Assembly: GCA_964012805.1 (NCBI GenBank)
Contig: CAXGUD010000001.1
Span: 160,001-224,000 of the forward strand
DNA: 64,000 bases
Reading direction: 5' to 3'
From: an uncultured Bacteriovoracaceae bacterium
GTDB lineage: Bacteria; Bdellovibrionota; Bacteriovoracia; Bacteriovoracales; Bacteriovoracaceae
Below the pieces are notes generated by a model that did not search any database, was not told the origin of the DNA, and was given only the letters and a program-made list of their open reading frames with translations. A program made the position numbers and the translations under genes. Each line of letters starts with the position of its first letter. The first letter of the stretch is position 1. Positions 1,832 through 56,132 of the stretch are shown here, piece by piece.

Positions 1832-3016
1832 GTGGAAAAGAAAAACAGTCAGAATGATTTATCCAAAAACTTAAAAGAAAAAATCAAAGGCCTTTTTAGA
1901 CCTATATTATTTCTTTATTGTACTTCTTTTATTGGAGCGCTTCTAATTTTAGGCCCTTCTGAGGTCAAGGCCTTTTCAGGGTGGGATAGAGGAAACTCTC
2001 CCAGCAAAATGAAGTTTTTTACCAGAAACACATTTAAGCTACTCCCCCTTAAAGGTTTTTTAAAAGAGCAACCCTGGAGTGGTGATTACTGGCCAACGCA
2101 TAAAGGAGGGGTAAGCTACCGATGGGCAAGCCCGGCGCGCATAGAAAAAAATAAGTGGATGTACAAAACCCCTGGAAAGGGAGTAGTTCCTAGAAACCTG
2201 TCTCCCATTGAAAAGTATGATCTATACCTTGGTAATAAAAACTTTGACCTCACGAATTTAGAAAGAGAAAGAACAGGAATTTTTACCGAAAGAAAAATTC
2301 CCGAGTGGGAAGGGCTTTGCCATTCATGGGCACCTGCGACTTTTCTGTATGAGAACCCACAAACAATTACAGTAGAATCCCCAGAGGGAAAAGAGATCAC
2401 TTTCTACTCTTCAGATATAAAGGCCCTTCTGACTTATCACCTTCATTTCAACGAAGCACCGAAAACAAAATTTCTAGGCAGCCGTTGTAACCTAGATTTC
2501 AGCGAACTTGAAAAAGAATATAAAAAAGGCCTAATTTCTAAAGAAGACTTAGACGCCTTGATGAGAAGGCCTGAATGTGAAGATACAAATGCGGGTGCCT
2601 TCCATGTTGTCCTAACAAACTTTGTTGGCCGCAAAAACCGAAGCTTTATTATTGATAAAACGAGGGACTTGGAAGTTTGGAATCAGCCTGTTTATGGTTA
2701 TGAATCTAAAATCCTTGAAGAAAGAAAAGGTGCTTCTGAAGGCTCACACCCAAGAACTCATAAAGAAATAACTCTGGAAACCGTTGTTTATTATATCGCT
2801 GAGGTTCCACAAACTTTTGACCTCTCTCTTAGCCAAGACTCTATCGAAGCAATAACCTTTACCTATACCCTGGAAATTGACTTTTTTGGAAGAATCATAG
2901 GTGGTTCATGGTTATCTTACGAGAGACCTGATTTTATATGGACTCAGAATAAACCAAGTTTCAAAGGCCCTTTTAAGGAGCTCAAAGGCCTTTACAACCT
3001 TTCCACAAGTTATTAA
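1832..3016 (+). CDS. Secreted transglutaminase-elicitor (GP42)-like protein
   Basis: N-terminal hydrophobic segment; PWSGDYWP, SPIEKYD, WEGLCHSWA, NAGAFHVVLTN, VWNQPV, RPDFIW motifs. Confidence 0.75.
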   Translation: MEKKNSQNDLSKNLKEKIKGLFRPILFLYCTSFIGALLILGPSEVKAFSGWDRGNSPSKMKFFTRNTFKLLPLKGFLKEQPWSGDYWPTHKGGVSYRWASPARIEKNKWMYKTPGKGVVPRNLSPIEKYDLYLGNKNFDLTNLERERTGIFTERKIPEWEGLCHSWAPATFLYENPQTITVESPEGKEITFYSSDIKALLTYHLHFNEAPKTKFLGSRCNLDFSELEKEYKKGLISKEDLDALMRRPECEDTNAGAFHVVLTNFVGRKNRSFIIDKTRDLEVWNQPVYGYESKILEERKGASEGSHPRTHKEITLETVVYYIAEVPQTFDLSLSQDSIEAITFTYTLEIDFFGRIIGGSWLSYERPDFIWTQNKPSFKGPFKELKGLYNLSTSY

Positions 3017-4301: not shown

Positions 4302-6752
4302 TTAATAATCAACTTTTTTCAAAGATCTAATATAGCGGCTTGAAATAATTTTAAAAAGCAGTATCTCCCTATTTTGAACGATATCGTTAACCTTATAGCG
4401 GTAAATTTTTTTCATATAACTCTTATCTTCTTTGACTTCCTTCATTTCGGCAACCTTCCTCTCTCTCCTCATAGGAATCCTAAGACCCTGACTAACTGGT
4501 TTAAGACCTATCTTTCTTGATACCCTTGCCATTTGTCTTGATAAAGAAGTCTCTCTTATTGGCGCCCGGTCTCTCGCTAAAACACCGAAGGTTCTTCGGT
4601 TTACCCAATTTAGATTTTCAGGAGACATAATAGAATTCATAAACCTCCGGCCTATTTTATTTCCATTTTTCGGAAGTGGTGTTAGTCCTCTCCGTTTCCT
4701 CATTTTATTAATCATAGAAATCATTTTTTTGTTAATTTTTTTAAGTCTTGCTGCAGCTTTATTTAATGAATTTACATTGAGCTTGCTAGCAGTCCCAGGT
4801 GAATTTAAAACACTATTGGTACTACCGGCTAATGTTTTAGCAGTTGGCGCTAGAGCATTTCCTAAGCTTCCACTGGCCATAAAAAGACTCAGGGGAATTG
4901 AGTAGCAATCGTTAGTTGCCTGACACTTGCAATCTTTATCAACGTTTTTATTTTTGTCCTGACAGTACATTGAGGAATCCTCTTGGTTTGGGGCGGTTGA
5001 AACAGAGGGTACTGCTCCATTTAAAGGTGGGGTTGTCCCTTCATAATAATCCTGACAAACCTGAAGGTTTCCTCTTGATGGATGCTCTTTTCCACTTCCT
5101 GTATAACAGAACCGATCGACCTCCTCTTTTGACGTAAAGAAAAGCTCCCCTTCATATTCATCCATCTGGGCCAACATACTCCTCACTTTATCGATATTTT
5201 GTTCACTACTTTTAATTTGTTTCACGGCTTCAGATAGAAGAATACTTGCAAAGGTGAGAGACATACCACAAAGAATAGCAATTCCTGGTGAAGTTTGAAA
5301 GAAAGCGGCCACCTTCCCAAGACCCTTCCTCAACTGTGAAAGACCAGGCGCCGCTTGGGCCTCTGGAATGAAGAGAGAAAAAAGGTTATGGTTGAGAGTT
5401 CTTGCCATTTGAAGAAACTCTCTTACTTGATGGAGCCGCGGATCAGAGTCACTTTTTATTTTAAAATCAAGATCTCTTAAGTGGCTTGATAAAAGAGGAT
5501 CTAGCCTCCTTTGATTAAAATGACTCCATTTCTTTTCATTAAAAAACCATTTTTCCAATTTTCTTAAATCAACATTCGCTAACTCATCAGGTTCTACATG
5601 AAAAAGCGGATCTATCTTTTTAAAAGGTTTAACTTTTTCAAGCTCTTCTTTAGGTATTCTCAAAAAAGGAAGCCCTGTATCTATTTTCGATTTAACTCCT
5701 GACCAATCTTTCTTCTCATAGGTTGGAATTTTAAAAGGTTTTTTAGGTGGTGGCTTTGGCTTTGAAATTGTCGGTTTAGCTGTTGTGGTCGGTTTAGGAG
5801 TTGTTGTCGGTTTAGGAGTTGTTGTTGGTTTTGGAGCTGTTGTTGCTTGCTGCTTGGGTGTAAGTTTTATTTCAACATCGCGGTCAGTTCCATAGGACTT
5901 TGATTTATCGATATTAGTTTTTGACTTTACGTTTGAGTAATCGGTTTTTTTACCTTTGGCATGTTCACCATAGTCCTTACTTCCATCTTTTTTCAAGTAG
6001 TCTTGCTTTGGCTTTTGTTCCGCTTTCGAATCTGCTTTCGGTTCAGGCTTAGGCTCTTCTTTTGCTATGTCTTTATCTTGCTTTGGGGCGCCCACACAAG
6101 CATCGGCCACTCCAAAGGGGGTCATCTCATAAATGGCCATTGCTAGAGAAACACCATAAAGACCAGTACTTAAGGCATAAGCATTTCTTGAATGTTTAGA
6201 AACATGAATAACTACCTCTTGCTCCTTAATTAGAAATTCAAAAACGGCAGTTTGAGCTTTATCAGACTTTTTTGAAATATAAAGGTTTTCATAATCCTTC
6301 TTAACTTCACCTAGTTTTTTCTTGGAGTAGAAAGTGACAAAGAGCTGGCTTGCCATATCAACAAGTCCAGAGGCCATAAAGAGCTTTTGAGACTTACAAC
6401 TTTTCCCACCCGATTGTTTTGTCGCCACCATGTTGATAACCGTTAAGGCCATCCTTGCAGCAGTGATCAAATTTTTGGTAACTTCAGCTCCAGTCTTAAA
6501 CTCAGCTTCATCTCCTATCCCAGCTTCAGAAGCTCCAATCTCTTTTAAACAATCTCTTTTTTCTTCACGGGACTCAAGTTGGTTACATTCATCAGCTGAC
6601 ATTTGAATAAATTTACTTTCTTCTTGGGCGTAAATTGGCGGAAGTTGGACAATAACGAAGTTAAAAATGAACGCAAGTTTACAACTCTGACGAAAGAGTT
6701 TTTTGAAAAGAGAGGAGAATGGAGAAAAAATTTGTTTTACAAACATACCCAA
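4302..6752 (-). CDS. Large secreted/membrane Cys-containing hypothetical protein with Pro/Thr/Lys linker
   Basis: 816-aa ORF; signal-like N-terminus (…PPIYA|QEE), several hydrophobic helices, PKPTTT repeats, Cys cluster. Confidence 0.75.
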   Translation of the reverse strand: MGMFVKQIFSPFSSLFKKLFRQSCKLAFIFNFVIVQLPPIYAQEESKFIQMSADECNQLESREEKRDCLKEIGASEAGIGDEAEFKTGAEVTKNLITAARMALTVINMVATKQSGGKSCKSQKLFMASGLVDMASQLFVTFYSKKKLGEVKKDYENLYISKKSDKAQTAVFEFLIKEQEVVIHVSKHSRNAYALSTGLYGVSLAMAIYEMTPFGVADACVGAPKQDKDIAKEEPKPEPKADSKAEQKPKQDYLKKDGSKDYGEHAKGKKTDYSNVKSKTNIDKSKSYGTDRDVEIKLTPKQQATTAPKPTTTPKPTTTPKPTTTAKPTISKPKPPPKKPFKIPTYEKKDWSGVKSKIDTGLPFLRIPKEELEKVKPFKKIDPLFHVEPDELANVDLRKLEKWFFNEKKWSHFNQRRLDPLLSSHLRDLDFKIKSDSDPRLHQVREFLQMARTLNHNLFSLFIPEAQAAPGLSQLRKGLGKVAAFFQTSPGIAILCGMSLTFASILLSEAVKQIKSSEQNIDKVRSMLAQMDEYEGELFFTSKEEVDRFCYTGSGKEHPSRGNLQVCQDYYEGTTPPLNGAVPSVSTAPNQEDSSMYCQDKNKNVDKDCKCQATNDCYSIPLSLFMASGSLGNALAPTAKTLAGSTNSVLNSPGTASKLNVNSLNKAAARLKKINKKMISMINKMRKRRGLTPLPKNGNKIGRRFMNSIMSPENLNWVNRRTFGVLARDRAPIRETSLSRQMARVSRKIGLKPVSQGLRIPMRRERKVAEMKEVKEDKSYMKKIYRYKVNDIVQNREILLFKIISSRYIRSLKKVDY
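5770..5841 (-). repeat. Four imperfect 18-bp tandem units encoding (P/A)KPTTT
   Basis: gtcggtttaggagttgtt exact at 5788-5805 and 5806-5823, with degenerate copies on each side. Confidence 0.85.
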
Positions 6753-6952: not shown

Positions 6953-9091
6953 TTATCTACATAAAGCAAAACCGGCCCCTCCTGAAGTCCCTTTAGTAAT
7001 TTTGCAGCCGTAACCACGACCATCGAACTTCCCTCCAAGAATGGCTACAATATCCCACCTCCCTATCTCATTGCAGGCTTTTGACTTATCTTTTTCGATA
7101 TCAGCAACTGTTACTGCCTGCCTGCCTATACCTGCGCAGCACGCCCTAGCTTTATTAATGCCGCTTCCTGTCGAGCAACGGACTTGCTTAGATTTACTCC
7201 AATCAATAGAATCAGAGCATTTATTAGAAATACATTTTTTTGGAGGACTACATTCATCATTTTTGTTGCATTCAACACAAGTATTGCTTCCTGTTTTACA
7301 AAAATTTGTAGTGCTAGTTAAACATGGATGAATGAAGCCAGTATCCTCATTCATAAATGTTTCAATAGCCCCCTGACAAGAAGCATTTAAAACACAGTAA
7401 TTTTTTGACTCTAAGAGGCAGTCCTTGTAATTATTTTGTTTATTTTGAAGCTCAACTGGTGTTTCGCTTCCGGTAACACTAATGGAGCAAGGGTTTCCGG
7501 AGTAGGAACAATTTGTAAAAAGGTCACTTGGGCCAGAACCGGTATCACCGCCTTTATCTCCAGCGTCCCCTGTAACTGTAGGAATAGCACTACCGTCGTG
7601 GACAAATTGAACCTCTGTGCAAATTTTCCAATTTCCGTTTTCTTTGTAAAGTGGAGCTGCTCGAAAGGCCATATAATGCTTAGTATCACCATCCCACCAG
7701 TTCTGCCAAGCTTTAAAGCTTACTTCTTTGCTACAAACCATTTCTGGAAACTTTTTACAATTAAAACCAACAGCTCCACTTACACTTTCTGAGGAGAATA
7801 GAAAGTGCTCATCACTTTGGTCACAGGTAGGAATCGGGTAACAGCCTTTCTCATCATCCCATGCAAATGTATCGTTAAAAAAGGTGCTACAAATTTTTCT
7901 GGCAAAAACTTTAGCCATTGTTTCTTTGGTAAGACCGTCAGAAGCAATATCAGATAGGGCTCCCTCGACAAGTCTATCAACTGGATTAGCAATATCTGGG
8001 TCAAAAAGACTTTTTAGGTAATTATGAACCCATTCCCTTGTTGCGACATATCCCTCTTCTGCATCCTCATCCGACCTGCTTAAATTAAAATCATAAAGAT
8101 CTGCTTTATTGAAATTTTCAATTTTAATCCTCTTAAAAGACGTTTTCCAACTTAAGTTTTCAATAGCTGTCGATGAAAATTCAAAATACTTAGATCCATC
8201 AAACTCAAGCCTAAAAAAGGGCTGCCCCTGAGGAGAGAGGTCAAGATTAAATATATTTTTTTCTTTTGTGTATAAGGTTGCCAAAGTCCCTTTATTACCA
8301 AGGGTTAATTTTGGAGTGGTATCTTCAGGTTCACTTCCAGAATTTGAAATGATTAAATCACCTTTAGTCAATTGATCTTTTGATGTTATTAACTCTGTAA
8401 CGGACAAATCTCCAGTATGATTTTGACCATTTTCAGAATTTTTTTCTAAGATAACATTTCCTGTAGCTTCAAGTGCTGTCTCTTGATTATCCTCTTTACT
8501 CAGAACAATAGAACGACATCTTTTTAAGTCGCTAAAATCACCATCCAAAGTTTGGCACGCTCCTGAAAGGAAGGTGTCACGGTCAGACATGCAATCTTTG
8601 ATAGCGGCTTTCCCAGAGCTGGAGACAAGATTAAGAAAAATTGGAATCTTTCTCACAATTTGCATCGACCTCAAAGGCTCTATAGTGACTTCAAAGTCCG
8701 CCCTACCCTTTGTATAATTTTTGATTTTCATTTTTGAAATTTTAAATTTACTGCTGCCTACACCGTAAGTTTTACCTGCTTTTATCGAGTCTGCTTTTTT
8801 GAAGGAGTTTGTAAAATTAATAGCGTTTATATCATCGCCCTCTCCGTGAGGACTTTTTCCACTAAAGGTATCGTCACAAACCTTTTCATTATCCAGGACA
8901 GAACGAATCGTATCTAACATTTTAAAAATTTCAGTTTCCTGATTTATTTTTCTAGCGAGACCTCCAGAGTTTTCAGCGAATTGCATGACTCCCAAACTTA
9001 CTACACCAAGGATTCCTGCGGCAATAAGAACTTCTAGAATTGAAAATCCTTTTTCTTCTTTAAAATTAACTCTTTTTAAAAATGAGTTCAA
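6953..9091 (-). CDS. Giant prepilin-type N-terminal cleavage/methylation protein (paralog 3)
   Basis: EEKG|FSILEVLIAAGILGVVSLG class III signal with Glu+5; Cys-rich C-terminus. Confidence 0.85.
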   Translation of the reverse strand: MNSFLKRVNFKEEKGFSILEVLIAAGILGVVSLGVMQFAENSGGLARKINQETEIFKMLDTIRSVLDNEKVCDDTFSGKSPHGEGDDINAINFTNSFKKADSIKAGKTYGVGSSKFKISKMKIKNYTKGRADFEVTIEPLRSMQIVRKIPIFLNLVSSSGKAAIKDCMSDRDTFLSGACQTLDGDFSDLKRCRSIVLSKEDNQETALEATGNVILEKNSENGQNHTGDLSVTELITSKDQLTKGDLIISNSGSEPEDTTPKLTLGNKGTLATLYTKEKNIFNLDLSPQGQPFFRLEFDGSKYFEFSSTAIENLSWKTSFKRIKIENFNKADLYDFNLSRSDEDAEEGYVATREWVHNYLKSLFDPDIANPVDRLVEGALSDIASDGLTKETMAKVFARKICSTFFNDTFAWDDEKGCYPIPTCDQSDEHFLFSSESVSGAVGFNCKKFPEMVCSKEVSFKAWQNWWDGDTKHYMAFRAAPLYKENGNWKICTEVQFVHDGSAIPTVTGDAGDKGGDTGSGPSDLFTNCSYSGNPCSISVTGSETPVELQNKQNNYKDCLLESKNYCVLNASCQGAIETFMNEDTGFIHPCLTSTTNFCKTGSNTCVECNKNDECSPPKKCISNKCSDSIDWSKSKQVRCSTGSGINKARACCAGIGRQAVTVADIEKDKSKACNEIGRWDIVAILGGKFDGRGYGCKITKGTSGGAGFALCR

Positions 9092-9142
9092 ATCACATAC
9101 CCTTTAATTTTAATCAAAGTGGTCTCTTAAATAATCAACAAA

Positions 9143-11161
9143 TTAATTAGTCGCAAAACCCTCATCGGTTCTCAGCTGGTTCCAAACTTCATTGATATCT
9201 GAGTCGTAACTATCAAGCTCAACGACTTCCCATTCGCCACCAATTACTGAACAAAGGGAAGCCCCTCCACTATCCGAACAATCAGAAGTTGTACCAACAG
9301 AATTAGAACACGTAACAGTCGAACCACCCACTACCTGTGCAGAACAAGACTGCTTTTTATAAACATAAAACCAACATTTTCCACCATTATAAAAACTATT
9401 ATGCTTTCCAAGGTCATTATCACACCCGGCTTGATTACTTTTGGAATAGGACATTTCCTGAATTTCAATCCTTTCACATTTATTACCAGTAATTCGAGTT
9501 TGTCCATTAGCACCAGGGTTGATAGCATTATCACAAGGTGATGGGATAGAAGCAACCGGGTTTCCACCAGATGGTGGTGTCGCTGGAACACTTCCAGATC
9601 TTACTTTAAACTCCTGGCATCTTCCCTCAGCATCCGTATTAGCAACGTGGACAACTTGTTTGTTGGCCCAATCAAATTCATGAGTACGGGGTCCCGGATT
9701 ATTTGGATAACCTGGAACACAAGGAAGAGCGTTGAAATCCACTCCGCCAAACCAAGAACCAATTGTGTTAAAGAAGGAGCCAATACCTCTCGTTTTAAGG
9801 CAAGGAATTTCTTCTCTTATACAATTTGCTATTATTGTTGAAGTTCTATACTTTTTACAAAAAAGCTTTTGACTTGAGCCGGAAACAAAACCGGACTCTT
9901 CATAAGTACCCGCATAACAATTTCTAATATTGGTGTCTCTTAATTTACATTCCTTATTAACTTCGTCCCATTCATAGTCTTGCTTATAGTAATTTGAACA
10001 AATATTCCTCCCGAAAGCCAAGACGACGTCCTCTTTATTTTTTCTCACGTTTAAGGCTTGATTCTCAATACTTTCAAGAGCATCCTCAACAAGTTTTTGC
10101 ATTTGCTCTTTATTAGTATCTGAAAATTGACTTTCCAGGTTTTTATAAAACCATGCCCTTGTGGCGACAATGCCTTTAGGGTTTGTTTTTGATATTGAAT
10201 CTTCTCTTACATAATTCTTTTGCGATTTAAACCTCTTTAGGTGTAAATTATCAAGGTTCTTTCCATCAATAATGAGATTATCACCTTCAAACTTAAATGA
10301 AATTCTTTTTGAGAGAAGAAAATCAAGTGCCTTTAGTTTATTTCCTTTTTCCTTTAAATTAATAATAAATAAACCTTGAGAATCTGCTTTCAATTTTGCT
10401 TGATTAGTATCGCCTAAAATAACACCACCCGATTTTGTTTCAGTTTTTACATTAACCTCGTTTCTAACTTCTTGATCCAATTCGGTAGTGATAAGATTAG
10501 CTGCCTCTAAATTATTTTCTACCTCTATATTTCCAAAAGTTTTAATTGCATAATTATTGTTTTGACCATGAGTTACTTTTATGGATTTACAATTAACTCC
10601 ATCAGAAAAGCTCCCTAGAAAACCATTTTCACAATTATTTTTGGCAAGTTTATTATCATCTAAAAGACACTCAGTAACTACTCCGTTATCAATTCTTGTA
10701 TTAAGATTAAGCCTTCTAACTGAATATCCTGTGTCTTTTTCTCCCCTTTTAAATGCAATTTCAAAAACAGAGGTACCGTTATTATAATCTTTTAACGTCA
10801 TTCTTTGGATTGTTATTTTTCCTCTTCCCTGACCATATTCAATCCCCTGTTCGAAAATATTCTTTCCCTGAACAAACGATTTAATCGCTTTTATGTTGGT
10901 GCCACCACCTAAAGGAGAAACCCCTTTAAAAGTAGCGTCACAAGTCTCCTTATTTTTTAGATTTGTTTGAACTCTCTTAAATAATTGAAAGACCTCCATA
11001 TTTTGGGCCGTCACTGTAGCAACAGTTTGAATGGAGTCATTAAGGTAAAGGATCCCCAGACTGACAACACCAAGTAGCCCACTCATCAACATTACTTGGA
11101 TGAGGGCCGCACCTGTTTCCCTTTTTACAAAAGCTAATATTTTTTCTCTTAGTTTTGACAT
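9143..11161 (-). CDS. Giant pilin-like protein with PilX/GspK-type N-terminus lacking Glu+5 (paralog 2)
   Basis: RETG|AALIQVMLMSGLLGVVSLG; motifs collinear with both neighbours. Confidence 0.8.
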   Translation of the reverse strand: MSKLREKILAFVKRETGAALIQVMLMSGLLGVVSLGILYLNDSIQTVATVTAQNMEVFQLFKRVQTNLKNKETCDATFKGVSPLGGGTNIKAIKSFVQGKNIFEQGIEYGQGRGKITIQRMTLKDYNNGTSVFEIAFKRGEKDTGYSVRRLNLNTRIDNGVVTECLLDDNKLAKNNCENGFLGSFSDGVNCKSIKVTHGQNNNYAIKTFGNIEVENNLEAANLITTELDQEVRNEVNVKTETKSGGVILGDTNQAKLKADSQGLFIINLKEKGNKLKALDFLLSKRISFKFEGDNLIIDGKNLDNLHLKRFKSQKNYVREDSISKTNPKGIVATRAWFYKNLESQFSDTNKEQMQKLVEDALESIENQALNVRKNKEDVVLAFGRNICSNYYKQDYEWDEVNKECKLRDTNIRNCYAGTYEESGFVSGSSQKLFCKKYRTSTIIANCIREEIPCLKTRGIGSFFNTIGSWFGGVDFNALPCVPGYPNNPGPRTHEFDWANKQVVHVANTDAEGRCQEFKVRSGSVPATPPSGGNPVASIPSPCDNAINPGANGQTRITGNKCERIEIQEMSYSKSNQAGCDNDLGKHNSFYNGGKCWFYVYKKQSCSAQVVGGSTVTCSNSVGTTSDCSDSGGASLCSVIGGEWEVVELDSYDSDINEVWNQLRTDEGFATN

Positions 11162-11164
11162 AGT

Positions 11165-12586
11165 CTAAAACCCACAGCGGTTGACCGTCTGCGGTCCCTT
11201 TCCACACTTATAGCATTTACCAGTTCCACTATTTCCTGAAGCTGGCTTTCTATTAACACACCTCCAATCTGGAATTGTTTGACAAATAAATTTAGGAACA
11301 CCCCCATCTGAAAAGTCTTCCTTAACGGTCAAAAGCTCGTTTTCTCCACATTCCACATCTGGCTTACAAATACCGCCTTCCCATACAAAGCTTTTAAAAT
11401 ACCTTTGACACATATGTTTACCAACTGCTGCTACAATTGTTTTTTCCATTTGGTCATTTTTTATTTTGTCTATTGCGTCTTTTATATATTTATTGAAGAC
11501 ATCAGTTTTGGCCCTACTAAAGAGATAGGCTAAAGTTTGATAAGTCCACTGCCTAGTCGCAATCACTCCTTTCTTTGAACTTAATGATGATTCGACCAAA
11601 TCTTGATTACTTGAATCTATTATTAACTGTTCGAAAGAATCATCAGCATCTAAAACCAAATTATTTTTTTCGATCTTAAAATTTATTTTTTTACCCGTAT
11701 TCGTATTAATCTTTACTGATTTGAGCGTATTTTTAAAACCCATAAGGGTAAGGGCATCAGAACTTGATTTTAATGTCATTTGAACTTTATTGCTGGTTCC
11801 AACAACTACATTATTCTGAACGGCTAATTCATTTGAAACATTTTGATTTCTGGCCTTGGAATAACCACTGACTTTAATATCCCCTTTCTGTTGACCAGTA
11901 CCAGAAGACTTGATAACAACATTGTCTTTAGAGTTAATAGCAAAATCTTTTTCAGGGGAAGTTCTGATAGTTATTGATTTACAGTTTTTTTGATTTGAAT
12001 AATCACCTTCAAAAGAAATTTCGCAATTATCTCTCAGGTAAGAGTCTGTATTTGTAACACAATCATTTATTAATTTCGGATCTTTTCTTTCACCTTCCGG
12101 TATATCCTGTGGATTTAAATTGGTTTTTATTTTTAAAACTCTTTTTTCTTGAACAACTTTTTTTTCTTTTCCCGCGTACCTTTCAAAAACGACCTCTAAG
12201 TCTGATATCGATGTCTCTTTATTATAGTTTTTTAAATCTATTGAAAGGACTTTAACTCGCCCTCCGCCGGTGCCATAAAACTTATTCGTTTCCACTCGTC
12301 CAATTTTTTTTAAAGAAACTCCATCAATCGGGTTAAGACCCTTTAAATTCTCTCTACATTTTTCTTTATTTTGGAGACTTCCTTTAATTTGAGCCAAAAG
12401 CTGAAATATTTCTACTTTCTGTGAACTTCCGTAGGAAATATTGGTTGCATTTTGAATTGTTTGAAAAATGCCTAAACTCAAAATACCAATGAGCCCTGCC
12501 GCAACCGTGAGTTCAATAAGTGAGAACCCTTTTTCGCTTCCCATTGAAATCAGAATTTTATTGTTTTTTAACTTCTCAAATAACAT
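11165..12586 (-). CDS. Large prepilin-type N-terminal cleavage/methylation protein (paralog 1)
   Basis: SEKG|FSLIELTVAAGLIGILSLG with Glu+5; shorter Cys-rich tip. Confidence 0.85.
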   Translation of the reverse strand: MLFEKLKNNKILISMGSEKGFSLIELTVAAGLIGILSLGIFQTIQNATNISYGSSQKVEIFQLLAQIKGSLQNKEKCRENLKGLNPIDGVSLKKIGRVETNKFYGTGGGRVKVLSIDLKNYNKETSISDLEVVFERYAGKEKKVVQEKRVLKIKTNLNPQDIPEGERKDPKLINDCVTNTDSYLRDNCEISFEGDYSNQKNCKSITIRTSPEKDFAINSKDNVVIKSSGTGQQKGDIKVSGYSKARNQNVSNELAVQNNVVVGTSNKVQMTLKSSSDALTLMGFKNTLKSVKINTNTGKKINFKIEKNNLVLDADDSFEQLIIDSSNQDLVESSLSSKKGVIATRQWTYQTLAYLFSRAKTDVFNKYIKDAIDKIKNDQMEKTIVAAVGKHMCQRYFKSFVWEGGICKPDVECGENELLTVKEDFSDGGVPKFICQTIPDWRCVNRKPASGNSGTGKCYKCGKGPQTVNRCGF

Positions 12587-12723
12587 AAATGGAACTTTTT
12601 TCGATTATTCTACCATAAAATAAAAGTCAACTTATCCTTGGGAAAACCCTCCCTCATTTTCATTTGTCTTCCCATTTTTGATTTGGGATAATTTAAATAT
12701 CCAATTTATCGGGGTTGATTTCT

Positions 12724-14256
12724 ATGGTAAATAATTTGAAAGACAAACTTATTCAGAACATCTCAAAGGTCGAAAACTCTAAAGATGGACTTTTGGCGTT
12801 CAGTTTAACCTTTTTTTTCATAATGTTTTTAAGAAATTTCTTAGAACACTTTTCAAATGGCTCCACATTTAGGCTTGATAATATCCTTCACTTCAATTTA
12901 AGCTTCCTTTATTTATCCATGCAAATAACGGCTATTTTGGTTATTTTTTTAAAGGAAGATCCAAAAAAAATTGGAAAAGTTGTATTGGTCTTCTTTTCCA
13001 TCCTCCTTCTTCCCCCCATTGTAGATCTAATTTGGAGTCAAGGAGAAGGTCTTACAATGACTTATTATGTTCCAAATATTCATCAAGATCTTTTTAAGAA
13101 GTACCTGACGTTCTGGGGTAGCTATGAAGGATCGGGAGCGACGATAGGAATCAAGACGGAAGTCCTAGTTGGAGTTATTAGTGTTTTTACCTACTCCCTG
13201 TTAAAAAATGTATCACTTTTAAAAAGTGCATTCTTGGCATTACTTATTTACTCAAGTATTTTCCTTTTTGGAATGACTCCTTTTGTTTGGAAGTTTTTCC
13301 TGTCAATTTTTTCACTCAATTACAAAATAAATGATCAATATTTTTCATTCTTTTACTCTCTTGGATTGCTTCCTATCTTTGGTTTTCTTTTTTATAAATA
13401 TAATTCAAAGTTAATCCTTGCCTTAATAAAAGATTTGAGACTCGAAAGGATATTTCATTACCTTTTAATGTTTTTCTTAGGAACCTTTTGTGGTAATTTT
13501 TTGGGAGAAAAAGCTTTTTCCTGGTCAATCGATACATGGTCGAAAATGGTATTTTTTCCAATATCCATTTTCTTTGCTTGTCTTTTTTCAATAGTCATCA
13601 ATAATATTTACGATTTTGATATTGACAAAATTTCAAATAAATTAAGGCCTTTAATTACAAAAGATATAGAACTAAATACCTACAAAAAGGTAGGCACTCT
13701 TTCTCTTTTTTTAAGTTTTTTTTATTCTTCACTTTTGGGTTTCGAGTGGCTTTTCTTTAACATCCTTTTTACAGGCCTTTATTTTATTTATTCAAGCCCT
13801 CCTCTAAGGCTTAAGAGAATTCCATTCCTATCAAAGTTTATCCTTTCTTCTGCATCGATTATTATGATTTACAGTGGTTATTTTTTAATTGAATCAAATT
13901 TAAAAATAGACTTCGACCTTGTCTGGCCACTTTTTATTTCTTTTGGCCTTATATTGAACTTTATAGACCTTAAAGATACAGAAGGCGATTCTAAAGAAGG
14001 TATAAAAACTCTTCCCATTATCTTTGGTGAATGGTGGGGCAAAAGAATTATAGGCCTCTTTTTCCTCGTGAGTTATCCTCTCTCTTTCCTTTGGTTTAAA
14101 AAAATATTCCCCGTAAGTCCTTATTTTCTTCCACTTTTTGCTCTGGCAGGCTTAATTCAATACTGCCTCATTGTTCGGGATAACTATGATGAAAGACCTA
14201 TTTTTTACTTACACCTAACGGGACTTTCCTTCTTTTTAATCTGGCATATTTTCTAG
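12724..14256 (+). CDS. UbiA-superfamily prenyltransferase with an extra N-terminal multi-TM domain
   Basis: INNIYDFDIDKISNKLRPL, YSSPPLRLKR, IDLKDTEGDSKEGIKTLP; highly hydrophobic; start 12715 or 12724. Confidence 0.8.
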   Translation: MVNNLKDKLIQNISKVENSKDGLLAFSLTFFFIMFLRNFLEHFSNGSTFRLDNILHFNLSFLYLSMQITAILVIFLKEDPKKIGKVVLVFFSILLLPPIVDLIWSQGEGLTMTYYVPNIHQDLFKKYLTFWGSYEGSGATIGIKTEVLVGVISVFTYSLLKNVSLLKSAFLALLIYSSIFLFGMTPFVWKFFLSIFSLNYKINDQYFSFFYSLGLLPIFGFLFYKYNSKLILALIKDLRLERIFHYLLMFFLGTFCGNFLGEKAFSWSIDTWSKMVFFPISIFFACLFSIVINNIYDFDIDKISNKLRPLITKDIELNTYKKVGTLSLFLSFFYSSLLGFEWLFFNILFTGLYFIYSSPPLRLKRIPFLSKFILSSASIIMIYSGYFLIESNLKIDFDLVWPLFISFGLILNFIDLKDTEGDSKEGIKTLPIIFGEWWGKRIIGLFFLVSYPLSFLWFKKIFPVSPYFLPLFALAGLIQYCLIVRDNYDERPIFYLHLTGLSFFLIWHIF

Positions 14257-14271
14257 CTTTTAATTTAAAAT

Positions 14272-16002
14272 TTATAAGGCCAAGAGCATATGAGTTTTTT
14301 TATTTTCTAATATCTTCGTCCCCTTAAGGGCCTTAAAAGAAAAATATTCCTCTTCTCTTACCCCTTTGAAAAGGTTCTTGTGAACAAGAATCATTTCAAC
14401 CCCCATATTTTTTAATTTTTTTAAGGAGCCAGGTGATTTAAAATTTTGTAGGGTCGATTGAAGTTTCATTCTACGCTTTGGTACATATCCATTAACGCCA
14501 TTAACGATATGATGAGATAGTTTTGTCTGCCAATTCATATAGAGAACTTCTCTATTAAAACTATACAAATTTTCCTTTGAATCTAAAAAATCGAATTGAA
14601 TAAAGGATGGAAGATTTAACACGACTTTGGGTTTATAAACTTTATCTATTCTTTGATAGTAAAGAGGAGGTTTTTCAAGAGAGAAGGATGGGTATTTCTT
14701 TAAAGGGAAAGGTATATTTTCAACAAAGTAAAATGAAATTAAAAAAATTAAAGATAAAAAGCTTAAAGCCTTATTTTTTTTGCTCAATTCAAAAAAGTAT
14801 TTAAACGAAAAGCAAGAAAAGAAGCATAAAGCTATAAGAGTTATAAAAAAGGCCCTCAAGGGAACTCTTAAAAAAGAACTTAAAGGAAGCCATTCATAAA
14901 TTAAGGACACAGGGGAAGAAATTTTTAGATCAAAAATATAAATTGTGGGACCAAAAGATAAAAATAGCCCCAAAAGACCAATACAAATTATCGTTCGGCT
15001 TATCTTCTTTCCTTTATTTAAAAACCAACCCGCAGCACCCAAGCACGGCAAAACAAAACCAATCCAAGCATGCCTCCTTAGTAGGGCCCAAAAAGGGTCT
15101 TGAATACTATCCGTATGAGAACTTATTTTCATTAAGTTATTGGGTAATGCTTTAAAAAAGTCGGCCCCTTGAAGGCTTGTACTTTTTATAACCATAGACA
15201 AATTATAAGGGTTTACAAAAGAGGAATTAGAAGAATTCTGTACGTAGAAAAGTACTAAAGGTGATGAAACAATAATAGAGAGGAAAAAAGTTGAGAGCAC
15301 AAAAAGGTGTCCAAATTTTTTAGTTTCTTCTTTATAAAAAAAGAAAGTAATCAATAAAATTAGGACATAATAAAAATATAGATAAAAAGAAAAGTAAGGA
15401 GTCACTCCTAACAACAGGAATGAAATAATAAACTCATTTTTATTAATAGATTTAAAACTTCTATGTAAAAAGTAAAGTGAAAGAAAAGGAAGAAAATAAA
15501 AAATTATTAAGGTATCATCGATATTTGAAAAAACAAAATGTCCTGTACAAAAGAAAAGCCCTCCTAAAAAAGAAGCCCAACGGTGATTGACAAAAATATT
15601 TGCAAACAAATAAAAAGAAAAAGAAGTCAAAGATAACTGTAAAACCAGATAGAGAAAATAGGCCCATAAATCATTCCATAAAAGGGCCTTACAAATAATA
15701 AATAGGAGTCCCAACCCTGGCGATGCCTCACCAAAAGAAAATATATTCTTAACAGGGTAAAGTGATCTGAAAGACTCTCCCTCAGTAAAAAATGTTAGGA
15801 TATTTTTTAAGTAGTTATTTGAAAGCGCCACTGCAAGCCAAGTATCACAATTACCAGGCAAAGTTTTTGTTAGAGGATAAGGCAGAAAAAGAAAAAAGAA
15901 AAAAAAGAAATATAAAATAAAAAGTAAAAAAAGGCTCTGGCCATTTTTTTTTAAATTGTCACCTTTTCCTGAATTTTTAAATAAATTAAACCAACCTTCC
16001 AT
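14272..16002 (-). CDS. Polytopic membrane protein, GT-C/YfhO-like putative glycosyltransferase
   Basis: Many TM helices; early loop LPGNCDTW, FSFGE, LLGLFLSFGP, FLRVPLR, C-terminal soluble domain with IVNGVNGYVP. Confidence 0.55.
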   Translation of the reverse strand: MEGWFNLFKNSGKGDNLKKNGQSLFLLFILYFFFFFFLFLPYPLTKTLPGNCDTWLAVALSNNYLKNILTFFTEGESFRSLYPVKNIFSFGEASPGLGLLFIICKALLWNDLWAYFLYLVLQLSLTSFSFYLFANIFVNHRWASFLGGLFFCTGHFVFSNIDDTLIIFYFLPFLSLYFLHRSFKSINKNEFIISFLLLGVTPYFSFYLYFYYVLILLITFFFYKEETKKFGHLFVLSTFFLSIIVSSPLVLFYVQNSSNSSFVNPYNLSMVIKSTSLQGADFFKALPNNLMKISSHTDSIQDPFWALLRRHAWIGFVLPCLGAAGWFLNKGKKISRTIICIGLLGLFLSFGPTIYIFDLKISSPVSLIYEWLPLSSFLRVPLRAFFITLIALCFFSCFSFKYFFELSKKNKALSFLSLIFLISFYFVENIPFPLKKYPSFSLEKPPLYYQRIDKVYKPKVVLNLPSFIQFDFLDSKENLYSFNREVLYMNWQTKLSHHIVNGVNGYVPKRRMKLQSTLQNFKSPGSLKKLKNMGVEMILVHKNLFKGVREEEYFSFKALKGTKILENKKTHMLLAL

Positions 16003-16041
16003 TTATATATGCTAAAATGGAACAAAAAATGTGTCAAAGAG

Positions 16042-16917
16042 ATGGTATATTTAAAAAATTTTAGATTTTTAGAATCAATACAAGGATTTTTTCCGACTCT
16101 TTTTATTATTATTATCTTTAATCCCTCTCCTTTTTTAACCTTTGATTACTTATACCTTTTCCCTCTTTTGATAGTTATTTTACTTAATCACCAGTTTGTT
16201 TATGTTATTAATGATTTTTACGATTTCCCAACAGATTTAAATAATCCTAGAAAAACATATACAAGAAGTATTTCTCAGCAAAAGAGGTTAATCTTTATTT
16301 TTTTAATTATACTTATTAATCTACTAACTTTTAAAATCTATAATAATCATCTGTCTATTTTAATCTTAAATAGCTTTTTTTTCTTTTTGGGTGTCCTTTA
16401 CTCACACCCAGTGACCCATTTTAAAAGCAGTCGCCCCCTATCATTTCTTATTCACTTTGTTTATGGTTTTTTAGGATCAAGTATCGGCCATCTTATTCTT
16501 ATCGATTTAAACTTAATTAAAAAAATTTCGCCTCTACTCTTTACTTTATCAGGAAGTATTTTTGGTTTTTTATTTCTTGCCGGTAATATTATGAGTGCAA
16601 TCATAGATCAAAATATAGAACCTAATTCTTGGATAAAAAATTCGGCTCTTTTTCAATTGAATTATTATAAAAAAACTCTCTATTTATGTATCTTTTTATT
16701 GGCCATTTTTTACGTTTTACAGGTAAAAAAGCACACTATTTTACTTTTTCCATTTTTTTTAGCTATTTTTCTTTCTCTTCATAAGCTTTTTAATAAAGAC
16801 TCTCTTTACAAAAAGAATCAAGAGGTATCAGTTTTGATTAGAGACAAAGTGAGGCTATATTTTTTCCTCTTTTTTATATTTCAACTTGCTTGTAGTTTTT
16901 ATTTTTTTAAAGGGTAG
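16042..16917 (+). CDS. Second, divergent UbiA-superfamily membrane protein
   Basis: VYVINDFYDFPTDLNNPRK first Asp-rich motif and LYSHPVTHFKS; start 16009 or 16042. Confidence 0.65.
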   Translation: MVYLKNFRFLESIQGFFPTLFIIIIFNPSPFLTFDYLYLFPLLIVILLNHQFVYVINDFYDFPTDLNNPRKTYTRSISQQKRLIFIFLIILINLLTFKIYNNHLSILILNSFFFFLGVLYSHPVTHFKSSRPLSFLIHFVYGFLGSSIGHLILIDLNLIKKISPLLFTLSGSIFGFLFLAGNIMSAIIDQNIEPNSWIKNSALFQLNYYKKTLYLCIFLLAIFYVLQVKKHTILLFPFFLAIFLSLHKLFNKDSLYKKNQEVSVLIRDKVRLYFFLFFIFQLACSFYFFKG

Positions 16918-16921
16918 AGAA

Positions 16922-17467
16922 ATGACACTTTTTTTTGAATCTTTCATACTCTTGGTATGGTTTTTAATTTTTAATTGGGAAAGAAGGAAGAAAAACCAGT
17001 TAGAACAGTTTATCTTGCTTTACAGTCTTCCAATGACATTTATTTTGGAAGTCATAAACGATGTTTACTTTGGTTCTTTAGGTATGATTTATCCTCATTC
17101 ATTTTTTTACCTTAGACCTTTTAACTTCCCAATTCCAATTATACTATCTGGAAGTCTTTATTGCTGGGCCTTACATAAATTATCATTAAAAGCGTCCTCA
17201 TTAGATTTAAAAACAGAAAGGCCAAACCTAGTTTATTTTATAATGATCATGATCCTTTTAAACTCTTGGTATTTTATTGAGCAAATCGGTCAAAGTAGTG
17301 GCTATTGGATGAGAATAGGGGGAATCCAATATACTAATATCGTTATCACGCTTACTTACTTTTTTTACTTTTCCTTTACTATGCCCTCAATCATTTTTTC
17401 AATTCTCACCCTTAAATTTTTAAATAAAGGCAAAGAAGAAAAGGACTGCTCCACACATTGTATTTGA
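16922..17467 (+). CDS. Small polytopic membrane protein
   Basis: ATG 4 nt after the upstream stop; about 5 hydrophobic segments. Confidence 0.65.
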   Translation: MTLFFESFILLVWFLIFNWERRKKNQLEQFILLYSLPMTFILEVINDVYFGSLGMIYPHSFFYLRPFNFPIPIILSGSLYCWALHKLSLKASSLDLKTERPNLVYFIMIMILLNSWYFIEQIGQSSGYWMRIGGIQYTNIVITLTYFFYFSFTMPSIIFSILTLKFLNKGKEEKDCSTHCI

Positions 17468-52540: not shown

Positions 52541-54274
52541 TCATATTTTATTTCCAATGATAAATGAAAATTCTTTGGTACTTAAATTTCCAACACGGTC
52601 TTTTGCAAAGATCTTAATCGTATATTGACCTTTTTTCCATAATTCAAGTGGCCCTTTGTATTTTTTTAAAACTCCACCCAGTTTATAAGAAATTGTACGA
52701 GTTCCAGACTTTTTATCACTTGCAGCTAAAAATAAGCGGCTACCAGGGAAATAGACCGTTAGATTTTTGTCTTCAGATGCTCTTTTTCCTAGTCCTGTAT
52801 TACTAAAATGATGAAAAATTTCAGGTGGAGTATTATCAACAACAACCTTTGAACTATTTGGAGTTTGAGAATTATTAACATTATCAATTGAGAAGTAAGT
52901 GAAGTTATAAACTCCTTCATTTGTTAAATTAAAGGAAGACTTAAAAACTCTTTCATTTGAGTCATTTATTTTATACCTAATTTCCTGAACACCACTCCCA
53001 ATATCTCTGGCATCAAAATTAATTTTTGTACTTTTGGAAATAAATACTTTTTCAAAAACCGGTATGTAGGGTCCTTCAAATTTTTGTTCGACAAAGGGCG
53101 GTAGTAAATCTAATATAAGCTTAATCTTTTTAGAACCAGACCAGTTATTTAATTCATCCACGGCTTTGTAAGTAATTTCATGTTTCCCTAGAACCTTTGG
53201 TAAAGAAAAACTTCCTCCGAAATTTCTATACTTTCCATTTTTGTATTTCCATATAATTTTTTTAACAGCAACTTGTTCATCACGAGCAGTAATATTTACC
53301 TTTGACCTTTGACTTACATAAATTCTCTCTCCTCTTACATGTTGATCACCGATAATATCGGCATCAAAAGCAGGAGGGGTTCTATCAAGGTAAAATTCAA
53401 CTTTTTTTGTTTCTTCTTTATTTTCCACATTATCAATCGCATAATAGGATAAAGTATAAGGGCCATCAGGAAGCTTCTTCATGGAAAGCCTTGAAGATCT
53501 ATAGACACCGCTTCGCTCGTAATCCGGTGAAGAGAAATCAAAATATAGTTTTTTTACCTTGGAACTTGCATCCTGACTTTGCAAACCAATTGTCACATTT
53601 CTTGAAAATACATTTTTTATTCTCAAACCTTTAATCATATAAGATGTTTCAGGTGGAGTAAGGTCTACAATAAAGTTTATATTTTTGTCATGAGACCTAT
53701 TACCAACATTATCCATACTATAAGCGACTAAATCGTATTTCTTCTCTTTATTAAAGGTAAAGGGACCGTTATATGGCTGAAATGGTCTATCGTTTATGGA
53801 AATAAATGTTTTTTTAACACCTGATAGTCCATCTTTAGACATTAGAGTTAACTCTACAGGCTCTCCCATATATAAGTCTTTTCCATTAAAATACCTCGGA
53901 ACTTTATTGTATTTATAGTTAAGCTTTGGTCCCTTGCTATCCAGATAAAGCCTAAATGTTGTAGATGGATCAACCGTCTTACCAAGATGAAAGTGAGCTA
54001 TCTTATGCATACCTGGGTTTTTAAAATTCATTGGAACTGGAGGTTTTGATCTATCTTTGGATCCTTCATTAAACCAAAGAACAGTTGGACTATCGTCATC
54101 TGGAGAAGTCGAGAGTTTTAAATATAGTGGCGCTTTATAATTTAGATAAACATTTTTGTTTTTATCTACATGGATTTTAGTTTCAAGGCTTTTACCATCA
54201 TCTATTTTTTCCAGTCCAAATATTGATAAGCTAACTAGAAAGCTTAGAGAAACTAACAAACTTTTTTTTCCCAT
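52541..54274 (-). CDS. Secreted multi-Ig-like repeat protein (OmpL47-type domains), paralog A
   Basis: Repeated DxTPP…D..SGV…Y…YxxDNVxN units. Confidence 0.75.
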   Translation of the reverse strand: MGKKSLLVSLSFLVSLSIFGLEKIDDGKSLETKIHVDKNKNVYLNYKAPLYLKLSTSPDDDSPTVLWFNEGSKDRSKPPVPMNFKNPGMHKIAHFHLGKTVDPSTTFRLYLDSKGPKLNYKYNKVPRYFNGKDLYMGEPVELTLMSKDGLSGVKKTFISINDRPFQPYNGPFTFNKEKKYDLVAYSMDNVGNRSHDKNINFIVDLTPPETSYMIKGLRIKNVFSRNVTIGLQSQDASSKVKKLYFDFSSPDYERSGVYRSSRLSMKKLPDGPYTLSYYAIDNVENKEETKKVEFYLDRTPPAFDADIIGDQHVRGERIYVSQRSKVNITARDEQVAVKKIIWKYKNGKYRNFGGSFSLPKVLGKHEITYKAVDELNNWSGSKKIKLILDLLPPFVEQKFEGPYIPVFEKVFISKSTKINFDARDIGSGVQEIRYKINDSNERVFKSSFNLTNEGVYNFTYFSIDNVNNSQTPNSSKVVVDNTPPEIFHHFSNTGLGKRASEDKNLTVYFPGSRLFLAASDKKSGTRTISYKLGGVLKKYKGPLELWKKGQYTIKIFAKDRVGNLSTKEFSFIIGNKI

Positions 54275-54310
54275 AATAAAACCTCTTAAAAGACCATAAC
54301 CCTACTTTTT

Positions 54311-54337
54311 TTATCGGCTATTTCCCTAAAAAGGTTA
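54311..54337 (-). promoter_or_regulatory. Putative sigma28 (FliA) promoter
   Basis: Minus strand TAAC-N15-GCCGATAA, 36 nt upstream of ATG 54274. Confidence 0.6.
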
Positions 54338-54401
54338 ACATCTAAATTCATTTAAACCATAGTAATTGATGAGGAAAAAAATGATTATTAGCAAGATCTA
54401 A

Positions 54402-56132
54402 TTATTTATATTTAGATATAATAAAAGATATTGTCATTCTGCTATCATTACCAACATGATCGTAACAAACAATTTCTAATTCATGTTTACCCTGGCGCCA
54501 GTATTGTAGTGGTTCTTTATACCTCTTTGCAATACCACCTACTTTATAAAAAATTGACTTTGTCCCTGATAACGAATCTGAAGAACCTAAATAGACTCTA
54601 CTACCTGGAAGTAAAACTGGAAACATCCTCCCTTTAACCTCTCTTTCTCCTATTTTTGTGTTACTAAAATGATAGTTTATTTCAGGAGGTGAACTATCAA
54701 CAACAAAAGTTGATTTTTGCTTAATCATAGTATTTCCAACTCTATCCCTAGCAAAGTAATGGAGGTTATATGTCCCTTCCTCCTTCAAATGAAAAGGCCT
54801 TTTATAGCCCTTCTCAGGTCCTTTTTCATTACCTCTATCGGCCCTATAAATAATTTCTCTTATACCAGAACCTGAATCAAAGGCTTTCAGTACAATCTGA
54901 CTTTTTGGGGAAATAAAACTCTTTTCAAAAATTGAAATTTTTTTGCCAATAACTTTAAACTCCATCACAGGTGGCAATAAGTCCAATATAACACTTAGTT
55001 TTTTCATTTTACCCCAATTTCCTAGAGAGTCAGTAGCATTATAAAAAATATCTTGAACTCCTCTATTTGGTGGAAGAGAAAAAGGTTCCTTAAATATTAT
55101 TGCCTTTGACTTTTTAAACTTCCATATAACTTTCTTTACATCAACTTTATTATCTGAAGACTTAATATTAACTTTTGATCGCCCTGAAACAAATATTTTT
55201 CCATTAAATTTAAACTGATCACCAATAATACTTGCTTTAAATTTTGGAGGCTTTTTATCCAAATGAAACTCTATCTTTTTTTCTTTCTCTCTGTTTTCTA
55301 CGTTATCTATACCATAAAAACGAAGTGTATAATCGCCGCCTGGAAAACTACTTATAGAGATATTCTTACCTCTAAAAAGTCCCCTCTTTCGAAATAGGCC
55401 AGTATTATTTTGAAAAACATAAATTATGTTTTTTAAACCAGATAACACATCTTTACCCTGAAAAGAGAACAATGCTTTTTTAGACAAAATGTTTTCCTTC
55501 CTTAGTCCCCTGATTTTATATGAGCTTGACGGTGGGGTCAGGTCCAGCTTGAAAGAAATTTTTTGATATTTACTCTTATTAGATACATTATCCACACTGT
55601 AAAATTTCAATTCGTAATAGTTTTCATCTTTCACTATTATTGGTTTAACAAACTTTTGTTCTTCAGAATCATTAATTTTAAAGTGAATTCCTCTAACACC
55701 AGAAAGAGCATCTCTTGCCTTTAAGTTTATTTTGAAAGGCTCTCCAAAGAATGTTCCCCCCACCCCTCTAAACTTAGGTGACTTTGTAAATATCCAGCTA
55801 ACTTGTGGAGGAGTTTTATCTAAAATAACTTTAAAGTTATTCTTCCTATTCAACTTTCCTTTTCTTTTATGTTGATGCCCAATTAAATGTGCTCCTTGAT
55901 TAAGAAGCTTTATTGACTCTTTTTTTCCATCCAAGTTAAATAAGGGAATAGAGTTTGCATCATCGTCACTTGAATTCGAAATTCTCAAAAAGAAATTCGC
56001 CCCACCCTTTAAGTAAATCCTTTTGTATTTATCTATATGAATTGTTTTTTCTGACAAATTGGCTGGAAAACCTTTTGAGTAAATAAAAGTTGATCCTAAA
56101 AGAAGAACAAATATGATACATTTCAACTTCAT
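54402..56132 (-). CDS. Secreted multi-Ig-like repeat protein (OmpL47-type domains), paralog B
   Basis: Collinear with paralog A (DLTPP, IIGDQ, LDLLPP, YHFSNT). Confidence 0.75.
   Translation of the reverse strand: MKLKCIIFVLLLGSTFIYSKGFPANLSEKTIHIDKYKRIYLKGGANFFLRISNSSDDDANSIPLFNLDGKKESIKLLNQGAHLIGHQHKRKGKLNRKNNFKVILDKTPPQVSWIFTKSPKFRGVGGTFFGEPFKINLKARDALSGVRGIHFKINDSEEQKFVKPIIVKDENYYELKFYSVDNVSNKSKYQKISFKLDLTPPSSSYKIRGLRKENILSKKALFSFQGKDVLSGLKNIIYVFQNNTGLFRKRGLFRGKNISISSFPGGDYTLRFYGIDNVENREKEKKIEFHLDKKPPKFKASIIGDQFKFNGKIFVSGRSKVNIKSSDNKVDVKKVIWKFKKSKAIIFKEPFSLPPNRGVQDIFYNATDSLGNWGKMKKLSVILDLLPPVMEFKVIGKKISIFEKSFISPKSQIVLKAFDSGSGIREIIYRADRGNEKGPEKGYKRPFHLKEEGTYNLHYFARDRVGNTMIKQKSTFVVDSSPPEINYHFSNTKIGEREVKGRMFPVLLPGSRVYLGSSDSLSGTKSIFYKVGGIAKRYKEPLQYWRQGKHELEIVCYDHVGNDSRMTISFIISKYK

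Follow-up and report, generated by a model that had tools for sequence, protein, structure and literature searches.

A tandem trio of prepilin-like fibre proteins from an uncultured Bacteriovoracaceae bacterium as candidate subunits of a heterotrimeric pilus tip

Three tandem minus-strand genes lie at positions 6,953 to 12,586 of a 64,000-nucleotide stretch of DNA from an uncultured Bacteriovoracaceae bacterium (GCA_964012805.1, contig CAXGUD010000001.1, positions 160,001 to 224,000; hereafter the window). They encode paralogous prepilin-like proteins, subunits A, B and C, which we read as minor pilins that form one 1:1:1 heterotrimeric, pilin-anchored fibre at the tip of the type IVa pilus (T4aP), a reading to which we give a probability of roughly 60%. 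From the sequences and those of their relatives we infer prepilin cleavage, 1:1:1 assembly, a wound stalk, an apical Gln-bearing subunit and a location at the T4aP tip; that the heads bind prey is speculative. Judged from its kinship only, the host organism is presumably a predator.

Subunit A (P0001; gene 1, 11165..12586, minus strand) is a prepilin-like fibre protein of 473 aa with the signal G20/FSLIE (the slash marks the predicted cleavage site), hence Glu at position +5 (Glu+5), and a 66-aa Cys-rich tail. Subunit B (P0002; gene 2, 9143..11161, minus) has 672 aa and the signal G17/AALIQ (Gln+5, Ala+1), and subunit C (P0003; gene 3, 6953..9091, minus) has 712 aa, a TTG start and the signal G15/FSILE (Glu+5). 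The intergenic gaps are 3 and 51 bp, and the open reading frames (ORFs) confirm the arrangement, lengths, gaps and signals given in a preliminary description of this DNA. As in the type IV pilin superfamily, all three proteins carry a class III signal, and a long α1 helix lies on an antiparallel β-sheet. Pfam N_methyl and TIGR02532 match genes 1 and 3 only; the signal of gene 2 (basic leader, Gly, hydrophobic tract) was recognised by eye and by profile and is identical in the orthologues P0192 and P0193. The genes are the only copies in the host genome (4.47 Mb, 100% complete), where a fourth copy was searched for and is absent. A same-genus genome (L021) conserves the trio with identical order and signals, orthologues of subunit A are 48-79% identical, and trio DNA is detected in marine metagenomes, with no RNA data set listed as containing it. 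Contigs of four marine runs, which cover the locus piecewise, hold no supported frameshift or rearrangement inside the three genes, one weak joint with a 21-letter side being disregarded. Artefact or chance ORFs were rejected as an account of the trio. Scanning metagenomes for orthologous trios gave 8 loci, 0 of them orthologous, and a promoter and terminator scan of the locus stayed at chance level.

The three proteins share a common architecture. In pairwise BLASTP the trio members are 25-28% identical along 409-462 aa (E 5e-44 to 8e-40), and the shared motifs listed in the preliminary description are all invariant alignment columns. The mature pilin domain of subunit A (residues 21-202; 11981..12526, minus) consists of a long N-terminal helix and a β-sheet with four conserved Cys; AlphaFold2 models its residues 51-180 at pLDDT 76-94, and the domain has weak structural matches to GspK, XcpV and Streptococcus sanguinis PilA. 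The shared extension that follows (residues 203-407 in subunit A; 11366..11980, minus) comprises a predicted β-type stalk, an ATRQW neck (11546-11560), helices and a C..W..C motif. The post-pilin region is homologous by itself across the trio (E 2e-18, 2e-10 and 1e-13; 202, 211 and 222 aa long), is homologous also to the singleton P0014, and is unfolded over residues 205-358 in the AlphaFold2 monomer model of subunit A. By alignment the neck reads ATRAW in subunit B (residues 333-337; 10151..10165, minus) and ATREW in subunit C (residues 350-354; 8030..8044, minus). Beyond it stand the unique Cys-rich C-terminal heads of subunit B (residues 407-672; 9146..9943, minus), family-less and blank in Pfam and PHROG, and of subunit C (residues 418-712; 6956..7840, minus). 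The distal part of the subunit C head is the most variable against its orthologue (55% identity versus 75-90% elsewhere), and searches with both heads within chosen length ranges gave their own orthologues only. The tails are mutually unrelated (best E 0.85). The collinearity over about 400 aa reported earlier stands, but the divergence after it is not quite complete, since genes 1 and 3 can be aligned slightly further, to about residue 443/453. Likewise the three heads do differ, but they amount to one tiny and two large ones, because the gene 1 tail has only 66 aa.

Relatives in 59 genomes, nearly one per genus, were surveyed for copy number and the +5 residue from the sequence that surrounds the matches; some 30 out of 265 matches, weak or contig-end ones that are isolated by coordinates, were left unfetched, and the first 20 loci were chosen for their clustered look, not for the +5 residue. 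The survey yielded 176 clusters, 152 of which have at least 1.5 kb of flank and enter the size counts: 103 hold one gene, 12 two, 35 three, one four (EEEQ) and one six. With the same-genus copy of the trio omitted, none of 34 family triplets is all-Glu and 27 have exactly two Glu+5; when labels are shuffled between the members of triplets, 6.8 triplets on average come out all-Glu, and zero was reached in 0 of 100000 shuffles. When 9 evident orthologues are dropped, 23 of 25 triplets follow the 2+1 pattern. Singletons keep Glu+5 in 82 of 103 cases, and 9 of the 12 pairs combine a Glu with a non-Glu member. Within triplets the non-Glu gene stands first in 5, second in 8 and third in 9, with a divergent layout in 5. 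The divergent triplets, in which one gene opposes the other two (L029, L069, L077, L094 and L099), also hold two Glu and one non-Glu member. At L087:4494-13200 six consecutive family genes read QEE-QEE, a duplicated triplet in which one Q member carries a Hint-like module. Two contig-edge loci, L106 (G009:C2, an Ile+5 gene) and L023:228-4351 (G009:C11, an EE pair), group with L092; here the assembly has probably broken a single triplet in two. The heterotrimeric-tip idea of the preliminary description thus survived a survey that might have overturned it, in which the family is mostly single or triple and never an all-Glu triplet; its expected 2+1 pattern proved the prevailing one but not strict.

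A profile of the family (A2), built from 67 N-terminal domains, has matches in 68 of the 70 host-family genomes and in 63 of the 121 genomes from the phylum. At E<=1e-10 it also matches 6038 representatives at 50% identity, the weak ones of which may include other pilins. Pfam recognises only N_methyl in these domains (38 of 67), and database names of members run from hypothetical and PulJ/PilV-like to 'tail fiber domain-containing' (Halobacteriovorax, Bdellovibrio), with members recorded as hypothetical proteins in the cultured B. bacteriovorus and H. marinus. Mature lengths span 159-1280 aa, among which the supposedly 'giant' pilins of the trio are of ordinary size. Of 150 top hits 90 were scanned, and 17 of these have the S74 trimer chaperone in the C-terminal part, as do 18 of the 120 singletons and 9 of the 143 clustered members; S74 singletons have Glu+5 in 13 of 17 cases and non-Glu in 4, and in the triplet L076 (E, M, E) all three members carry S74. 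Further C-terminal modules include YadA heads, TSP1, RCC1, dermatopontin and Hint, and P0017, P0024 and P0118 have tail-fibre PHROG matches, of which the trio has none. Searching with a profile of the trio stalk and neck recovers P0014, a singleton (2.6e-6), together with members at the loci L023, L092 and L192. Given the S74, YadA and tail-fibre matches, we take the family to combine a pilin domain, a trimeric fibre and a variable tip, the fibre nature of the trio following via its kin; and because most members are single genes, many of them with trimer chaperones, homotrimers are probably the commoner state. Short singletons of about 225-265 aa mature (L004, L005, L015, L175 and L187), often with Gln+5 and nearly extension-free, may be adaptors or partners in trans. 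Four loci of one genome (G014: L109, L110, L111 and L073) have near-identical N-terminal domains and C-termini of differing length, which suggests recent spread and tip swapping. On a metagenome contig (L226:6878-9105) two family genes lie in tandem and overlap; both have Glu+5 as well as an S74-like SDxRxK motif.

How triplets arose was examined in a FastTree analysis of 271 domains with the +5 column masked and in an IQ-TREE analysis of 32 rows selected after inspecting the FastTree result. The larger tree places old triplets with position-specific orthologues (a QEQ lineage; L038/L082/L088/L089) alongside young ones; only 2 of 36 triplets are well-supported as monophyletic in it, and many deep nodes are weak. 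In the IQ-TREE analysis triplets L030, L032 and L092 each form a monophyletic group (99/96, 99/94 and 99/96), and the window trio groups with L092 and the singletons L192 and L022 (99/99). Forcing nine non-Glu members into one clade costs 158 log units (AU p 1e-41), and with the monophyletic triplets this rejects a single ancient origin of all triplets. Because the trees reject a single origin of non-Glu members, triplets appear to have arisen repeatedly, each losing Glu+5; about four origins is a minimum, since many deep nodes lack resolution. The trio itself probably descends by triplication from a single-gene, homotrimeric fibre pilin of CofB/TcpB-like kind.

Assembly would begin with cleavage after the Gly by PilD, predicted from the signal that is seen in each protein. 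The three N-terminal helices would then form a staggered bundle with the Gln+5 subunit B on top, by analogy with PilK and GspK: B would be incorporated first, when no earlier subunit requires charge neutralisation, and PilA would polymerise below. As relatives suggest, the length-matched extensions would wrap around one another as a three-stranded stalk of phage-fibre type, which the ATRxW neck and the helices would close, so as to display three different disulfide-rich heads for adhesion, plausibly, if speculatively, to prey. A single gene that fills all three staggered positions would have to keep Glu+5 for the lower two, and triplication would release the apical copy from this demand. Heterotrimeric phage-like β fibres would be structurally unusual, and we know of no wound fibre of three paralogues.

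The host genome offers several machines on which such a tip could sit. Contig C22 carries pilB, pilT, pilC, pilA, pilD and pilMNOPQ-like genes, with minor pilins absent; contig C50 carries a type II secretion system (T2SS) with its own G/H/I/J/K-like genes, namely four pseudopilins of GFSLxE type plus a GspK-like gene that is non-Glu; and contigs C56 and C3 carry Tad genes with their own G/Qxx[IV]E pilins (machine gene names other than those of ATPases, secretins and peptidase are readings of the ORFs). N_methyl matches in the host genome are limited to PilA, four genes of the T2SS and two trio members. PilX_N has no match in the trio or in 22 family genomes, although positive controls matched; PilY1 (PF05567) is absent beside the trio and matched 0 of 121 phylum genomes, in a search with no matching positive control. 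Because the T2SS and Tad own their sets, the trio is by elimination the best candidate for the T4aP priming and tip complex.

Several known systems resemble the trio in part. CofB of ETEC CFA/III and TcpB of V. cholerae are minor pilins of type IVb pili (T4bP) whose large C-terminal extension trimerises and which cap and prime the pilus (PMC7248040, PMC13533445). The trio resembles these tip trimers in build; CofB and TcpB are, however, single genes in a T4bP operon, whereas the trio belongs to another pilin-domain family with single- and three-gene forms, a T4aP host and phage-fibre-type stalks in relatives. S74 and YadA in those relatives, not in the trio, are no more than indirect hints of trimerisation through the C-terminal extension; the Pfam families for the CofB pilin and C-terminal β-sandwich have no match in the trio or in 67 family domains, and the CofB/TcpB and Shufflon_N clusters of the ESM Atlas are weak neighbours (0.81-0.82), below the reliable range and a lead only. 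The PilIJK/PilVWX/GspIJK initiation heterotrimers consist of three pilins of which one, presumed apical, lacks Glu+5, and PilK homologues are said in the same source to 'invariably lack Glu at +5' (PMC13533445). The trio shows the same charge pattern, but those are ancient distinct families in near-invariant gene order, often with PilY1, whereas the trio comprises paralogues of one repeatedly triplicated family with free order and individual extensions. The PilV/W/X kinship drawn in the preliminary description accordingly gives way to in-paralogues of one family, with the non-Glu gene in any position and non-Glu members polyphyletic; orthology to PilV/W/X was rejected on the missing PilX_N match, the rejected non-Glu clade and the variable gene order. 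The KilL/M/N Tips of Myxococcus, also a predator, are described as heterotrimeric, modular, Tad-associated minor pilins with several sets per genome and analogues noted in B. bacteriovorus (PMC12075869). They are of TadE/F/G type, in contrast to the T4a-type signals and collinear three-way extension of the trio, which has no match to TadE/G Pfam families; in the host genome, Tad genes sit on different contigs from the trio and have separate pilins. The mosaic adhesive trimer (MAT) fibres of Bdellovibrio are trimeric and phage-fibre-like with variable tips, with S74 chaperones in 13 of 21 MATs; they are homotrimers with a signal peptide and a conserved 130-aa β-rich N-terminal domain, and the word 'pilin' does not occur in the main text of their description (PMC10769870). 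The N-terminus of the trio is instead a type IV prepilin domain, and S74 is absent from the trio and present in its relatives. The modular pilins PilB and PilC of S. sanguinis likewise join a pilin domain to a grafted adhesion module (PMC8179133, PMC9934059). S. sanguinis PilA and PilB are weak fold matches to the subunit A pilin domain; the modules of PilB and PilC, however, are globular. On present sequence comparisons the trio thus seems to belong to none of the CofB/TcpB, PilIJK, MAT and Kil Tip groups.

Against the heterotrimeric tip weigh a number of observations. Seven of the 34 triplets have two or three non-Glu members (one QEQ/QNQ lineage of 6 loci, and L074, where one site is unreadable), 21 of the 103 singletons are without Glu+5, and the 12 pairs are genuine, with a hidden third gene absent beside them; the rule is therefore 'at least one non-Glu' and not strictly 2+1. 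Only Glu members occur in 11 of 59 genomes, so that a non-Glu subunit is not universally needed, and only singletons in 17, counts that the unfetched matches could shift. Outside the family, 20 loci that were viewed include one EEE triplet (L213) and one SEQ. The triplet pattern appears to be a statistically clear genomic signature of heterotrimer formation, with p-values overstated because the genomes are related. Neither Pfam nor PHROG nor the PDB gives a direct fibre match for the stalk of the trio, which also lacks S74, so that the link to fibres runs via relatives; S74 was found neither in the trio nor in host-genome ORFs at E 1e-4, a profile of subunit A orthologues aligned with the fibre-like P0118 through the pilin domain alone, and in the Atlas the stalk lies near phage proteins (0.82-0.85), of which one set has 11% gp37_trimer, which is a lead only.

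The same observations invite other explanations. The three proteins could be interchangeable homotrimeric tip adhesins, a CofB/TcpB- or MAT-like repertoire with one type per pilus that is tandem by chance; close kin of the trio do include singletons with the same stalk and neck (P0014, L022, L192), singletons that combine non-Glu+5 with S74 exist, as do tandem all-Glu pairs with S74 (L033, L083). We nevertheless judge this unlikely, since triplets outnumber pairs 35:12 where stepwise duplication predicts about 1.4, and since it leaves the absence of all-Glu family triplets and the QEE-QEE sextet unexplained. A heterotrimer held together by its pilin domains only, as in GspIJK or KilLMN, with extensions that serve as separate arms or strand-addition partners instead of a wound fibre, seems distinctly improbable to us: the extension of about 200 aa is collinear and length-matched, it is unfolded in the monomer model as expected of an intertwined chain, and the members of a triplet are closer to each other in length than under shuffling (p 1e-4, 33 triplets). 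Finally, the trimer may serve another machine or none, as the tip of a Tad pilus or of an alternative T2SS pseudopilus, or as an inner-membrane-anchored or pilus-free exported fibre. The trio genes are unlinked to the pil locus, which also tells against a T4aP tip, the genome has a T2SS and two Tad loci besides, and a bulky three-headed tip would presumably need passage through the secretin. This too has little probability in our estimate, as the T2SS minor set is complete down to its non-Glu GspK-like gene, the Tad pilins have a different signal from the GFSLxE type of the trio, and the T4aP would otherwise be without a candidate priming complex.

Several neighbours of the trio are of interest in their own right. 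Directly downstream (4302-6752, minus) lies the gene of an 816-aa protein that has a low-complexity insert (PTTT/PK) and matches nothing in Pfam or NCBIfam. Its orthologue also follows the trio in L021, and it has a paralogue at G000:C58:17763-20204. Just upstream (12715-17467) are two prenyltransferase genes of UbiA type and one for a multi-pass membrane protein; membrane- or glycosylation-looking genes also flank L022, L023, L028 and L029, a hint of pilin modification. Farther off in the window lie a transglutaminase-elicitor family protein (1832-3016, plus; PF16683, E 4e-36) and two tandem paralogues of 577 and 576 aa (52541-56132, minus), in which Ig-like 'D.TPP' units recur and which have a LysM-like protein as neighbour.

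Bdellovibrio requires type IVa pili for predation, in which their role is described as unclear (PMC12428579, PMC5430801), and no account of a tip complex of these pili turned up in the literature searched. The family, too, is undescribed in what was found there, a coverage that is thin for subscription papers and confined to main texts, so that the supplementary figures of Herrou on Bdellovibrio Tips could bear on novelty. It supplies concrete, deletable candidates for the T4aP tip, and its variable tips suggest a route to prey range. Because Glu+5 is repeatedly lost exactly upon triplication, the family is also a natural test of the Glu+5 stagger rule. It is possible, as a tentative extension, that the Bdellovibrionota replaced the canonical PilVWX-PilY1 tip of their predation-essential T4aP with undescribed pilin/phage-tail-fibre chimeras, both single-gene homotrimers and obligate heterotrimers with three heads, the latter through repeated triplication and convergent apical Glu+5 loss, as swappable prey-recognition tips. 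If true, this would be a living replay of how asymmetric I/J/K tips could arise from symmetric ones. The pattern itself is real and more general than the preliminary description could know, a probable pilus-tip trimer variant across a predatory phylum.

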